A DNA stretch of 64,000 bases from Nitrososphaeria archaeon. Its GTDB lineage: Archaea; Thermoproteota; Nitrososphaeria; JACIWG01. The notes beneath the pieces were generated by a model. That model saw only the letters and a program-made list of their open reading frames with translations, made no database searches and was not told the origin of the DNA. Within the stretch, counting starts at the first letter, position 1. The number at the start of each line of letters is the position of its first letter. The stretch covers positions 214,961 through 278,960 of the forward strand of contig JARVJP010000011.1 of assembly GCA_029776065.1 (NCBI GenBank), in the 5' to 3' direction. A program made the position numbers and the translations under genes. Shown piece after piece: positions 59,499-64,000 of this stretch.

Positions 59499-60575
59499 AT
59501 GGAGTTAAAGGATATTTATGCCAAAAAGGTTCAATCCATAAAAGTGGAAAACAAAGTTAGTATATCTAAACTGTTATCTAAAATGGCAAAGACAGGTTAT
59601 CAAGGTAGAATGCTTGCAGAAGCCACTAATGTCGTAAATGAAATGATACGGGACAAAGACGTAACAATCTTCATGGGTTTAGCTGGCTCGATGTCTACTG
59701 CAGGGCAATGGCGTATCATAAACTGGTTTATAGAAAATAATTATGTTGACGTCTTAGTGCCAACAGGAGCTAATATTTCGGAAGATATCGTAGAGGCGAT
59801 GGGTTACAGCTACTTCCAAGGTCCACATTTGGTCGATGACAAGGAGGTTTTTGACCTAGGCCTAAACAGATACTATGACGTCTATGGAAAAGAGGATGAT
59901 TATTTAAAGATGACCGAACTCATAGCTGATTTCATTCAAACACTAGATAAGGATTACAAATACTCCTCTAGAGAGTTCCTGTACTTGTTTGGGAGATTTC
60001 TCTATAAAAAAGAAATAAAGAGTATCGTTGCAACCGCAGCAGAAAAGAAGGTTCCAATATTTTGTCCAGCAATTATAGATAGCCCATATGGAGATGCTGC
60101 CTTAATTGCAGAAAGCAATGGTTTCCATTTAACAATCGATGCGATTAAAGATTATGTTGAATTTATGAAGCTTGCAGAAGAAGTAAAGGATACAGGGGTG
60201 ATCTATATTGGTGGAGGAGTTCCAAAGGATTTCATTCAGCTTTTCGCTGTAACCGCAGATCTCTTATATAAAGATAGAATAATACCAAGTAGGAATAAGA
60301 AACCGATATATTGCAATCTAACAAATGAGAGTTACTACCCCCATAAATACGCAGTCCAAATTACAACAGATGCACCCCAATGGGGTGGATTATCAGGATG
60401 TACATTTGAAGAGGCAATATCATGGGGCAAAGAATCACTAGATGGGAAGTTCGTGCAATGTTATTGCGACGCGACAATTGCTTTACCAATAATTTCGCAT
60501 GCATTAGCAGAGACCATTAAATCAAATAGGAAACCTAAATCTTTCCGTTTGAAAAAGGACTTTTGGCCTAAATAA
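59499..60575 (+). CDS. dys: Deoxyhypusine synthase (DHS-like)
   Basis: ~358 aa. ..VPTGANISEDIVEA.. and ..VIYIGGGVPKDFIQL.. (GGGxPK catalytic-Lys region) typical of deoxyhypusine synthase. Confidence 0.7.
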   Translation: MELKDIYAKKVQSIKVENKVSISKLLSKMAKTGYQGRMLAEATNVVNEMIRDKDVTIFMGLAGSMSTAGQWRIINWFIENNYVDVLVPTGANISEDIVEAMGYSYFQGPHLVDDKEVFDLGLNRYYDVYGKEDDYLKMTELIADFIQTLDKDYKYSSREFLYLFGRFLYKKEIKSIVATAAEKKVPIFCPAIIDSPYGDAALIAESNGFHLTIDAIKDYVEFMKLAEEVKDTGVIYIGGGVPKDFIQLFAVTADLLYKDRIIPSRNKKPIYCNLTNESYYPHKYAVQITTDAPQWGGLSGCTFEEAISWGKESLDGKFVQCYCDATIALPIISHALAETIKSNRKPKSFRLKKDFWPK

Positions 60576-60756: not shown

Positions 60757-61565
60757 TTATTTTACAGTCTTTAGAGCTCTATCCCTTGTAGGTTCCATTA
60801 AAAGGTAGATAATAGAAAAAAAGAAACCTCCTTCTGATATAAGAACAACTAAAGTCCTTAGAACATCTAGCTTGTTAAATAGATAAAGAAAAATAATTGG
60901 GCCAAATAGAGCTGTTATAGAGTAAAAGACTGAAGCGAGGAGAGCTGCTGTATGAGGTCCATTAATTATTGCAACACTTCTAACGCTCTTAACTCTATCA
61001 CCTTCCATGTCAGCTATGCCTTGGGTTATTTCCCTCCCTAAGTTCGAGAAAAAACTCAAAGTAAATAGTGTAGCTACCGTAAGACCGATAGAATTCGTAG
61101 TTGACAAGAAACCAAAGATAAACGTGATAGAGACGCAATAGGCTACCATTATGTTTCCTAGTAAATCATAACCCTTATCATATAAACTGTAGAGCACTGA
61201 TAAAATAAAAGCAATGCCAATAACATCGCTAACAAGTTTATCATAATGGAAAATAAAGAACCCAATGCAAATAATGTTAAGCCAAAGTAAAGCGTCGCCT
61301 TCTTTGAAACTAAACCACATGGGATGGGCCTATTAGGTCTATTTATACGATCGATTTCAACATCTAAGTAATCATTTATTACAAAGGACGATGCAGTTAG
61401 AAAAACTGAAGTTGAAAATGGAAAGAAGCTTAATGGTAACTCAGGTAATGCCTTTAGAGGAATCACTTGACCGGCAAATGTGACCAATCCTATAAGAATG
61501 GTGCCTAACGGTCGAATCAATCGAATATAAGCAATGAACGAAGGACTATTTAAGCCATATTTCAA
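60757..61565 (-). pseudogene. UbiA-family prenyltransferase of the DGGGP-synthase type, split by a -1 frameshift in a T homopolymer (pseudogene or sequencing error)
   Basis: ORF 61158-61565 encodes the N-terminal half with motif NDYLDVEIDRINRPNRPIP. ORF 60757-61320 encodes the C-terminal half with DMEGDRVKSVRSVAI. Frames switch around 61201-61210. Adding one T restores ...LLALLLFLSVLYSLYDK.... Confidence 0.75.
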
Positions 61566-61800
61566 ACTTAAACCATTTAAATAATATTAACTTATCTATA
61601 TGTCTCTTATTAAAAACTTACAGAACGTCTTACTTATCTCCTATGATATGAGTATAAACTTGGGCGCAAGATATCAATAAGAACTTTGGTCAAATCAATA
61701 TAGTTTCGGTTGTCTAAAACATCGCTACGTTATACTTGTGAAAGCCTCTATTCTTATATCAAAAAGCTTAAAAACCTACTACAAGGAGAGATTAAATTAC

Positions 61801-62718
61801 ATGACTAGAAAAAAGTTTTTGATTTTAACCATAATCATGATAACAACTCTAACTTATACTATGGGACAAGCCTGTGCAGCACCCCTTCCATCTAAAGTGA
61901 AGGCTGGTGTGTGGATAACAAGCATAGACAAAGTAGACCTGGCTGCTGGAACTTATTCGATAGATTTTTATCTTTGGTTCATCTACGATGATGCTCCTCC
62001 TAACTTTGAATTCATCAACGGCGCACCAACTAGAATAGAGAAAACAGTCGAAAGGGAAGGTTACGTTGAATATAGGGTTAAGGCAACATTCGTCCAACAA
62101 TACGATTTCAAGAACTTCCCATTCGATACTCAAAACTTGGATATAATGATTGAAGACAAAACACAGAATATAACTTCGTTAGAATTGATCCCGGATTCTG
62201 AGCAAAGCGGTTTGGATTCACAAGCCTACGTTGTCGGATGGCAACCAAAGGAGTTTACATATCAAAGTTATGTTCACGAATACCCAGGTGAAAACTACTC
62301 CAGATTAGTCTTCACAGTGTCAATACAAAGAGAAATTTTTCCAGTCTTTATGAAAAACTTTGTCCCAATTACTTTGATCACGTTGATAAGCCTGCTATCG
62401 TTTGCAGTTAGCATACAGAACTATTCACAGAGGATATCAATAGGTATAACGACATTGTTCTCGGCAGTTGCATACCATTTGGCAACACTTGGAAGCTTAC
62501 CCCCGCTTTCATATCTAACTCTATTCGATAGAGTTATGTTAGCCATCTACTCCCTATTCCTCTATAACATAGGTGTAAGTGTGCAAGGAATGAGGCTAGT
62601 CGACAAAAAGCAAATAGACAAGGCCATTAGTTTTGAAGATAAAGCGCAAAAACTCCTACCCGTAGTTACTTTGTTCTTGATCATACTCTACACCGTACTA
62701 TTGGCGCCTTTTATATGA
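61801..62718 (+). CDS. Prokaryotic pentameric ligand-gated ion channel homolog (GLIC/ELIC-like Cys-loop receptor family); start at ATG 61801 preferred
   Basis: Signal peptide MTRKKFLILTIIMITTLTYTMGQA. Beta-rich ectodomain with FPFDTQNLDIMIE (cf. GLIC YPFDSQTLHIYL). VGWQPKEFT (cf. GLIC TGWDIESFT). Four TM helices M1-M4. Confidence 0.8.
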   Translation: MTRKKFLILTIIMITTLTYTMGQACAAPLPSKVKAGVWITSIDKVDLAAGTYSIDFYLWFIYDDAPPNFEFINGAPTRIEKTVEREGYVEYRVKATFVQQYDFKNFPFDTQNLDIMIEDKTQNITSLELIPDSEQSGLDSQAYVVGWQPKEFTYQSYVHEYPGENYSRLVFTVSIQREIFPVFMKNFVPITLITLISLLSFAVSIQNYSQRISIGITTLFSAVAYHLATLGSLPPLSYLTLFDRVMLAIYSLFLYNIGVSVQGMRLVDKKQIDKAISFEDKAQKLLPVVTLFLIILYTVLLAPFI

Positions 62719-62821: not shown

Positions 62822-63430
62822 ATGTCTGTCAAGAGGCAAGTCGTATTCTTTGAGAAACCTGGGCCAGAAAACACAATATCTGTAGTTGATGCGGTTAAGG
62901 ATAGACTTGGTCTAGGCGATTTAAGGAAAGTTATTGTACCTGTCACTACAGGTAAAACTGCTAAGATGTTCTCTGAAAGATTAGGTGACTTAGCTGACAT
63001 TGTGACCATATCTGAAAGCGAACTAATATCTATCTATAAGAAGAAAGATGTTAAACATGTAAAAGGCAGTTTCCTAGACGAATTATTGCATGAACGATTA
63101 AGAGATTTGGATAGAACTATCTCTGAAAGACTGAGGCGCGAAATCTTCGATATCGTCTTATTGCCCTTTTTCGGGGAGAAATGGGACGCAATTAAGGAGA
63201 CACTTTACATCTTTGGCCAAGGTATGAAAGTAGCTATAGAAGTATCCATAGCATCAGTTGAACTTAATAAAACAGAACCGTACCTCAAAGTGATTGCTGT
63301 AGGTGGAACAGAAAGTGGTGCCGACACAGCGGTAGTGATAAGAACCGCCCCTCAAAGACAAGCATTGGGGAAGAATAAAGAAAGACGACTCATAGTTGAA
63401 GAAATATTATGCATGCCTAGAGAGAAATAA
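62822..63430 (+). CDS. Pyruvate-kinase C-terminal (alpha/beta) domain-like protein
   Basis: ..RKVIVPVTTGKTAKMFSERLGDLADIVTIS.. resembles the PK C-terminal domain block. Confidence 0.45.
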   Translation: MSVKRQVVFFEKPGPENTISVVDAVKDRLGLGDLRKVIVPVTTGKTAKMFSERLGDLADIVTISESELISIYKKKDVKHVKGSFLDELLHERLRDLDRTISERLRREIFDIVLLPFFGEKWDAIKETLYIFGQGMKVAIEVSIASVELNKTEPYLKVIAVGGTESGADTAVVIRTAPQRQALGKNKERRLIVEEILCMPREK

Positions 63431-63577: not shown

Positions 63578-64000
63578 ATGACCTTTAGGAAAAAGCAAGA
63601 AATAATTTCTAGTTCTCCAATATCATTCCGTTATTTAAGACGTCTTAACATAGCAGCAGGCTTTCTACATCTCTCCCAAGGAATAATAATGCTAATCTTA
63701 GGCTCTCTTCTGAAATGGGAGCGTAGCATATACACATTTTACCTAAATATTACTATAATTCAAGGTCCTCCCGTAAAAATAGAATTGGTTCCAAATCCAC
63801 AAGTTATTTTCACTGTGAGCTACTTAGGAGCTATAGTCGCCTCATTTCCACTAATATCTGCTATAGCCCATTTTATGATCGCTTTCGTAGTAAATGACAA
63901 GTACAATGAGAACTTGAAGAAAGGTATGAACCCTTTCCGATGGTATGAATATGCATTTTCCAGCTCTATTATGATAGTGTTGATCGCTCTATTCCTAGGG
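63578..64000 (+). CDS. Heliorhodopsin-like 7-TM protein, N-terminal ~141 aa (3'-partial, runs off window)
   Basis: Not in ORF track because no stop before window end. Translation has 3 hydrophobic helices, His31 and His98, and NPFRWYEYAFSSSIM with Glu124/Ser128. This mirrors the His23/His82/Glu108/Ser112 spacing I recall for heliorhodopsins. Confidence 0.55.
   Translation, partial: MTFRKKQEIISSSPISFRYLRRLNIAAGFLHLSQGIIMLILGSLLKWERSIYTFYLNITIIQGPPVKIELVPNPQVIFTVSYLGAIVASFPLISAIAHFMIAFVVNDKYNENLKKGMNPFRWYEYAFSSSIMIVLIALFLG

Follow-up and report, generated by a model that had tools for sequence, protein, structure and literature searches.

The pentameric ligand-gated ion channels known as pLGICs form the class of receptors that underlies fast synaptic transmission, and much structural insight into them has come from two bacterial members, GLIC and ELIC. 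A gene resembling these channels lies near the end of a 64,000-nucleotide stretch of DNA (hereafter the window; contig JARVJP010000011.1 of assembly GCA_029776065.1) from a Nitrososphaeria archaeon, at 61801..62718 on the plus strand. It raises the question of whether such an archaeal protein is a channel subunit and, if so, what would open its pore and which ions would pass through it. The original prediction, made from the letters of the window, had described it as an archaeal GLIC-like pLGIC homologue. Profile matches, comparison with sequences of known structure, the predicted fold and the conserved residues all support that description, and our principal conclusion is that the gene very probably encodes a subunit of a pLGIC without the eponymous cysteines, that is, a Pro-loop receptor.

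The sequence evidence for this identity is of several kinds. The Pfam hidden Markov model (HMM) Neur_chan_LBD (PF02931) recognizes the protein at 31.6 bits (E 1.4e-7), above the gathering cut-off of 26. Two NCBIfam models also match it, TIGR00860 LIC at 2.6e-17 (62.7 bits, with a subfamily cut-off of 280.2) and LGIC_1 (NF033918) at 5e-14 (52.4 bits, with a subfamily cut-off of 500); on these scores the protein is a relative of both curated subfamilies and a member of neither. When all PDB sequences were searched with phmmer, GLIC was matched at about 1e-14 across amino acids (aa) 79-299, from the Pro-loop through the fourth transmembrane helix (M4), and a chimera joining the GLIC extracellular domain to the transmembrane domain (TMD) of a glycine receptor (GlyR) was matched at 2.6e-17. 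Judged by these statistics, the similarity to pLGICs is far beyond chance.

Residue conservation points the same way. Jaiteh et al. (2016; Table 1, PMC4795631) listed the seven positions most conserved across the superfamily, and alignment to GLIC reveals that all seven are kept: F106, P107 and D109 of the F/YPxD Pro-loop (GLIC Y119, P120 and D122), the beta9 core Trp W147 (GLIC W160), the pre-M1 Arg R177 (GLIC R192), the M1 kink Pro P189 (GLIC P204) and the M2-M3 loop Pro P234 (GLIC P247). To read these and the pocket, gating and pore residues discussed below, GLIC and ELIC reference sequences, 100% identical to the deposited PDB chains, were added to an alignment of 45 members of the archaeal clade, in which P107 and P189 are invariant. 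The Pro-loop signature FPFD (aa 106-109; 62116..62127, plus strand) aligns to Y119-P120-F121-D122 of GLIC and belongs to the motif FPFDTQNLDIMI at aa 106-117, the Cys-loop-region hallmark that had been claimed. A GW block is likewise present, GWQPKEFT at aa 146-153 (GWDIESFT in GLIC), but its spacing is GW-x4-FT, not the GW-x3-FT first noted. The composition of the mature protein includes no cysteine; as with the other prokaryotic members, it is a Pro-loop receptor of the Cys-less kind, and the disulfide-bonded cysteine pair that flanks the beta6-beta7 loop of metazoan Cys-loop receptors is absent. The protein genuinely belongs to the pLGIC/Pro-loop superfamily (TC 1.A.9), and is not a Cys-loop receptor sensu stricto.

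The predicted structure agrees with the sequence. An AlphaFold2 monomer model built on 57 homologues (mean predicted local distance difference test, pLDDT, 89.6; predicted template modelling score, pTM, 0.76) consists of a beta-sandwich plus four helices. Structure prediction and superposition had been proposed as a check, and a Foldseek comparison with the PDB ranked GLIC chains first (E 7e-22, template modelling (TM) score 0.78-0.80, about 21% identity), followed by GABA-A and glycine receptors, with 1108 PDB chains at E<=1e-3. The two outcomes that the original prediction had held to be contrary to it, namely the lack of any Cys-loop receptor HMM match and a different predicted fold, did not occur.

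From the N-terminus, the model comprises a helix at aa 2-19, a low-confidence linker at aa 21-25, nine beta strands within aa 31-176 and the membrane helices. The first 26 residues (61801..61878, plus strand; MTRKK, then FLILTIIMITTLTYTM, then GQACA↓A) fit the signal peptide that had been predicted, as judged from sequence features and from the model: a KK-rich n-region precedes a hydrophobic core of 12-15 residues; near aa 26 there follows a putative cleavage site, A-C-A↓A, whose -3 and -1 residues are small, and homologues have A-x-A-type sites at the equivalent position. The compact extracellular domain that follows (aa 27-178; 61879..62334, plus strand) is a cysteine-free beta-sandwich, as claimed, but its mature length is about 152 aa rather than the 190 or so first estimated. 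In the alignment, about 22 aa are missing relative to GLIC, corresponding to GLIC residues 50-73 (the beta2-beta3 loop and beta3), and several further deletions of 2-4 residues are seen. This compact architecture is common to all 45 aligned clade members; the Bathyarchaeia branch keeps a 6-residue insert at the deletion site.

Four helices complete the subunit, all encoded on the plus strand: M1 (aa 179-202; 62335..62406), with the conserved kink proline P189; the pore-lining M2 (aa 208-230; 62422..62490), whose register was taken from the GLIC/ELIC alignment; M3 (aa 241-268; 62521..62604); and M4 (aa 272-300; 62614..62700), which comes after a very short cytoplasmic M3-M4 turn, the break being of only 3 residues in the model. 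The four transmembrane helices and short M3-M4 loop of the original prediction are therefore recovered; the phmmer alignment to GLIC extends through M1-M4, and the M2 sequence RISIGITTLFSAVAYHLATL is found at aa 211-230. The TMD is the most conserved part of the protein across the 45 clade members, including R211, L219, A222 and H226 of M2.

Two points weigh against this identification. Of the two Cys-loop receptor profiles in Pfam, only that of the ligand-binding domain passes its cut-off; Neur_chan_memb (PF02932) scores 18.6 bits, below its gathering cut-off of 28.1, although the phmmer alignments to GLIC take in M1-M4 and the TMD alone matches the GlyR TMD at 1.3e-6. Moreover, the support comes from sequence and from a model of a single chain.

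The gene itself is intact and full length (305 aa plus stop). A purine-rich, Shine-Dalgarno-like AAGGAGAG, read from the sequence and presumed to act in initiation, lies at 61783..61790 (plus strand), 5' of the ATG at 61801, and nearly all homologues in the clade alignment share the same start Met. For these two reasons the start at 61801 is favoured over an upstream GTG at 61738, with which the mechanical ORF (open reading frame) list began, and the coordinates 61801-62718 on the plus strand hold. The protein is 100% identical to QXJ17_01125 of NCBI, a "hypothetical protein" on a 796-kb contig of a Nitrososphaeria metagenome-assembled genome (MAG), GCA_038874315.1, which places the gene in an archaeal host. 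By composition the gene is native: its GC content (0.388) is close to the window average (0.392) and its GC content at third codon positions likewise matches, and recent horizontal acquisition, considered on this basis, gave no signal and was rejected.

What might such a channel respond to? Crystal structures of ELIC show its agonists in contact with Y38, I79, E131 and F133 (PMC9674596). Three of these four contacts are kept in the archaeal protein: Y57 stands for Y38 (45/45 clade members), I72 for I79 (I in 26, L in 15, M in 3 and V in 1 of 45) and E118 for E131 (44/45), while the fourth, F133, aligns to K120 (44/45). Around them, ELIC E77 corresponds to E70 (45/45), R105 to R92 (45/45), F188 to Y166 (Y in 40 and F in 5 of 45) and F19 to W38 (43/45), and the clade shows no variation at H159 and Y161 of loop C or at W59 of loop D. 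An orthosteric pocket that is charged, aromatic and so constant speaks for a small-molecule agonist that is conserved. The pocket is far closer to the amine/GABA site of ELIC than to GLIC's proton-sensing network, and the likeliest trigger would be an amine or an amino-acid-like metabolite rather than pH. The two pocket Glu residues suggest an ammonium group on the ligand; the pocket Arg and Lys would fit a further group of negative charge, of the kind that an amino acid carries. Two points weigh against so specific a picture. The ELIC cation-pi partner F133 is replaced by Lys120, which makes a plain ELIC-type amine unlikely and would count against a simple primary amine as ligand; and the pocket geometry is read from alignment, the model being of a monomer.

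If the protein works as its relatives do, the sequence of events could be as follows. It would be exported through the Sec pathway with probable cleavage of the signal peptide near aa 26, and five subunits, each with its 152-aa extracellular beta-sandwich and four transmembrane helices, would assemble in the cytoplasmic membrane with M2 lining a central pore. By homology, an extracellular small molecule would bind at the subunit interface in a pocket of clade-invariant residues, lined by Y57 and W59 of loop D, E70 and F71 of loop A, R92 of loop E, E118 and K120 of loop B, and H159, Y161 and Y166 of loop C. The FPFD Pro-loop, Arg177 just before M1 and Pro234 of the M2-M3 loop would then relay the signal, and a hydrophobic gate at 9' and 16' (F220 and L227) would open. 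The physiological role would presumably be chemosensory control of membrane potential or ion balance.

The question of which ions would pass is addressed by M2, with S209 at -2', Q210 at -1', R211 at 0', S213 at 2', T217 at 6', F220 at 9', A224 at 13', H226 at 15', L227 at 16' and G231 at 20'. At the pore mouth the clade has G, A or S at -2', Q at -1' in 44/45 members and R at 0' in 45/45; a tabulation of the commonest residues in each column (five at most, 45 sequences) contains no Asp or Glu from -4' to 21'. Position 15' is an invariant His. M, L or F occupies 9', where Phe is a minority variant already on record (13%; PMC4795631). GLIC and ELIC need a 2-residue gap in the M1-M2 loop, which is longer by that much in the archaeal protein and aligns ungapped to that of GlyR. 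When the TMD alone was compared with the PDB, the first 38 entries were all chains of GlyR or GABA-A receptors (best 1.3e-6), followed by DeCLIC. The classical cation filter is a Glu at -1' or -2', and the anionic motif is PAR. With its S-Q-R mouth, no acidic M2 ring and a loop of GlyR length, the pore is probably without classical cation selectivity; anion selectivity or weak selectivity may be considered, and of these anion selectivity is conceivable but doubtful. Three points weigh against it: the ectodomain is net acidic (23 D+E against 13 K+R), which would favour cations in the vestibule; the Pro with which PAR begins is replaced at -2' by Ser, Gly or Ala; and, to our knowledge, all characterized prokaryotic pLGICs are cationic.

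How widespread are such proteins? When each GTDB species was represented by a single genome and scanned with motifs specific to the family, 261 confirmed loci of this subfamily emerged. The best 80 of these 261 are all archaeal: about 60 are from Bathyarchaeia/Bathyarchaeota, 10 are labelled Hadarchaeota and a few are from Nitrososphaeria, with two labelled "Methanobacteriota", one Nitrosocaldus and one Nitrososphaerales. The isolate names of many relatives point to hot-spring datasets. In a word-indexed search, identity was 39-90% for about 50 clusters, whose members are from Nitrososphaeria, Hadarchaeota and Bathyarchaeota; beyond these came one match at 35%, and the remainder lay at 25-28%. 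A profile search of 1.84 billion representatives returned 25,056 proteins at E<=1e-3 (2,143 at E<=1e-30), from which it follows that the wider prokaryotic pLGIC family is very large. Archaeal pLGICs had been reported in Methanosarcina in 2005 and as a Thaumarchaeota clade in 2016 (PMC4795631). The statement that these channels are rare in archaea is therefore overstated and outdated, given 261 loci in one subfamily and the published Thaumarchaeotal members.

In a neighbour-joining tree of the 80 loci, drawn without support values, the window protein and four close Nitrososphaeria relatives are sister to Hadarchaeota sequences, and the Nitrosocaldus and Nitrososphaerales copies group with Bathyarchaeia; such placements hint at transfer between phyla. 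Two copies of the subfamily, paralogous and on different contigs, were seen in the Hadarchaeales MAG JZ-2_201705_bins_153 (loci L024 and L026) and likewise in the Bathyarchaeia MAG HHBFW-2_201803_bins_227 (L068 and L072), which would allow heteromeric channels or functional divergence. The profile search also yielded giant proteins with five pLGIC-profile matches each, P0070 (2697 aa), P0074 (2078 aa), P0085 (2473 aa) and P0087 (2451 aa), as well as P0201 (853 aa) with three separate matches; in P0070 and P0074 the presence of Neur_chan_LBD and Neur_chan_memb is borne out by Pfam. These giant proteins look like natural single-chain concatenated pentamers.

Upstream of the channel gene come glycosyltransferases, deoxyhypusine synthase (59499-60575) and a divergently oriented UbiA-family prenyltransferase (60757-61565, minus strand).​ The prenyltransferase is broken into a pair of ORFs that overlap and lie in different frames, 61158-61565 matching positions 5-105 of the Pfam profile and 60757-61320 positions 75-240, and would be either a frameshifted pseudogene or the product of an assembly indel. 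Downstream, the original prediction had named a PK_C-like and a heliorhodopsin-like gene, both outside the channel system as we see it. The latter is confirmed: the N-terminal part of a heliorhodopsin gene occupies 63578..64000 (plus strand; PF18761 7.6e-34, NCBIfam HeR 8.2e-37) and runs off the window. The former gene is real as well; its 202-aa protein at 62822..63430 (plus strand) matches Pfam PK_C only at E=0.14, but is clearly a homologue of AF0103 (PDB 1vp8, 3.8e-13) and MTH1675 (PDB 1t57, 1.9e-12), two 'hypothetical' proteins of structural genomics. In the source record the heliorhodopsin is called as two adjacent ORFs of 214 and 58 aa (locus L001, 11778-12422 and 12422-12598), so that two split genes lie less than 3 kb from the channel gene, itself intact. 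A scan of the whole window found no tRNA.

To place these neighbours in context, the heliorhodopsin, 202-aa protein, UbiA and deoxyhypusine synthase of the window were compared by tblastn with 89 homologous loci. Heliorhodopsin was found within about 5 kb of a pLGIC homologue at 0/89 loci, and the PK_C-like gene at 1/89, about 5 kb away and 30% identical (L002, 12317-12883). In a relative of 83% identity the channel gene lies between an aminotransferase and a CBS protein gene, in relatives of 72-74% identity between HpcH_HpaI and Iso_dh genes, and the Hadarchaeum and Bathyarchaeota loci have different neighbours again. All-against-all clustering of 822 neighbouring ORFs gave lineage-restricted synteny only and no partner gene recurring across lineages; ABC ATPases do recur near pLGIC loci, at variable distance and orientation. 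The channel gene is stand-alone, with no conserved genomic partner. A TFIIB gene with an intein (PF14890 Intein_splicing) was observed a few kb upstream of the pLGIC homologue at the Hadarchaeum loci L003/L004 (1637-3583).

Three other explanations of the locus deserve to be weighed against a channel opened by a small molecule. The first, implied by the label 'GLIC-like' of the original prediction, is a GLIC-type, proton-gated and cation-selective channel that opens on extracellular acidification. GLIC is indeed the best whole-protein match in the PDB by sequence and by fold, relatives come largely from hot-spring MAGs by their isolate names, H159 of loop C and H226 at 15' of M2, both of them invariant histidines, could titrate, and the acidic ectodomain would suit such a channel. 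In GLIC, mutational studies have identified E35, E26, H235 (11') and E243 (19') as titratable gating residues and E222 as the -2' selectivity ring; structures of the corresponding mutants are among the PDB matches. None of these proton-sensor and selectivity residues is conserved in the 45 clade members: the archaeal protein has G50 for E35, S41 for E26, A222 for H235, L230 for E243, N68 for E75 and S209 for E222, the last being Ser, Gly or Ala in the clade, whereas the agonist-pocket residues are invariant. The likeness to GLIC would thus be one of fold, not of gating chemistry. GLIC-like proton gating was rejected as the leading model and we consider it very unlikely; with the sensors absent and the ELIC contacts mostly invariant, a small-molecule agonist is the likelier trigger and, provided that the protein is a channel, a moderately probable one.

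The other two explanations concern the locus more than the chemistry. The original prediction had suggested a small sensory membrane locus here; spelled out, this would be a light- and chemosensory module in which the channel is co-regulated or functionally coupled with the adjacent heliorhodopsin and PK_C-like protein. The three genes are all on the plus strand, with gaps of 103 and 147 bp, and the heliorhodopsin is genuine; yet the linkage is not conserved, as the counts above make plain, neighbours already differ at 83% and 72-74% identity, and A/T-rich TATA-like elements read before each gene suggest separate promoters. A sensory operon, extremely improbable in our estimation, was rejected after the tblastn and clustering analyses, and the claim is left unsupported. 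The split UbiA and heliorhodopsin genes on either side might instead indicate a locus carrying frameshifts, and the ectodomain is truncated relative to characterized channels, so that one could imagine a decaying or non-channel relic which has kept the fold and conducts no ions, perhaps serving as a binding protein or scaffold. Against this, the ORF is intact, the TMD is the best-conserved part, the signature residues of the gating interface are all kept, the compact architecture is found in all 45 members and family motifs recur in hundreds of archaeal loci. Intact ORF, conserved TMD and recurrent architecture argue for purifying selection on a working channel, and a relic is hardly to be expected.

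The reading as a working pLGIC subunit has some consequences. Since archaeal pLGICs were catalogued in 2005 and 2016 and Pfam tags the family, the genomic finding is not in itself surprising; its modest interest lies in how compact the ectodomain is, in the hot springs from which many relatives apparently come, and in a pore mouth that reads S-Q-R. At about 279 aa the mature subunit is unusually small. In the literature searched, whose coverage was incomplete, we found no characterized archaeal or anion-selective prokaryotic pLGIC, and nothing relevant beyond Jaiteh et al. 2016. A bolder proposal, which we hold to be rather unlikely, is that the clade (Nitrososphaeria, Hadarchaeota and Bathyarchaeia) could be the first pLGIC of prokaryotes to select for anions, with an amino-acid-like metabolite as its gating ligand. 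It draws on the neutral -2' and -1' positions, the invariant Arg at 0', the M2 table free of acidic residues, the GlyR-length M1-M2 loop, a TMD whose sequence is nearer those of GlyR and GABA-A receptors than that of any channel from bacteria, and the loop-B Glu with the loop-E Arg and Lys residues. If it were true, the 279-aa subunit would offer a minimal model for inhibitory receptors, probably thermostable in view of the many related MAGs with hot-spring isolate names, and could bear on an archaeal root for the anionic branch of eukaryotic receptors. An ELIC-like pocket combined with a pore mouth and TMD like those of inhibitory receptors makes the protein a reasonable structure target and a test for anion-selective pLGICs outside eukaryotes.

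The protein may finally be set beside known systems. The archaeal pLGIC clade of Jaiteh, Taly and Henin (2016; PMC4795631) likewise has a Cys-less Pro-loop, occurs sporadically in Thaumarchaeota (Nitrososphaeria) and other archaea, and is functionally uncharacterized; Nitrosocaldus and Nitrososphaerales homologues (38-40% identity) fall inside the same archaeal clade as the window protein, which in the neighbour-joining tree without support values belongs to a sub-branch with Hadarchaeota and not with ammonia-oxidizers. GLIC, the proton-gated pLGIC of Gloeobacter violaceus (PDB 3EAM), remains the best overall match in sequence (1e-14) and fold (TM score 0.78-0.80). The two have in common the Cys-less F/YPFD Pro-loop, the GW-x4-FT beta9 block, the pre-M1 Arg and the prolines of M1 and the M2-M3 loop, together with a very short M3-M4 loop and no N-terminal helix or accessory domain. 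Unlike GLIC, the archaeal protein has an ectodomain about 40 aa shorter, with GLIC 50-73 missing, and an M1-M2 loop two residues longer, and E35, E26, H235, E243 and E222 are not conserved.

ELIC, the amine- and GABA-gated pLGIC of Erwinia/Dickeya (PDB 2VL0, 2YN6), shares the pocket pairs Y38/Y57, E77/E70, E131/E118, R105/R92 and F188/Y166, an identical EFIN in loop A, the S-x-R context of the pore mouth and VAY at M2 12'-14'. It differs in F133 (Lys120 here), in the -1' Glu229 (Gln210 here) and in its longer ectodomain, and overall identity is low. The anionic Cys-loop receptors (GlyR alpha1-3 and GABA-A subunits), for their part, give the best PDB matches to the archaeal TMD (1.3e-6), with an ungapped M1-M2-M3 alignment, R0', GITT at 4'-7', SLP-x-x-SY in the loop between M2 and M3, and an Asp in M3; E118, the Glu of loop B, corresponds in position to GlyR E157 and GABA-A beta E155. 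They are set apart by their Cys-loop disulfide, N-terminal helix and long M3-M4 cytoplasmic domain, by a P-A-R pore mouth in place of S-Q-R, and by the archaeal host of our protein. As far as alignment can tell, the pocket is most like that of ELIC, the minimal architecture most like that of GLIC, and the TMD closest to those of the anionic receptors.

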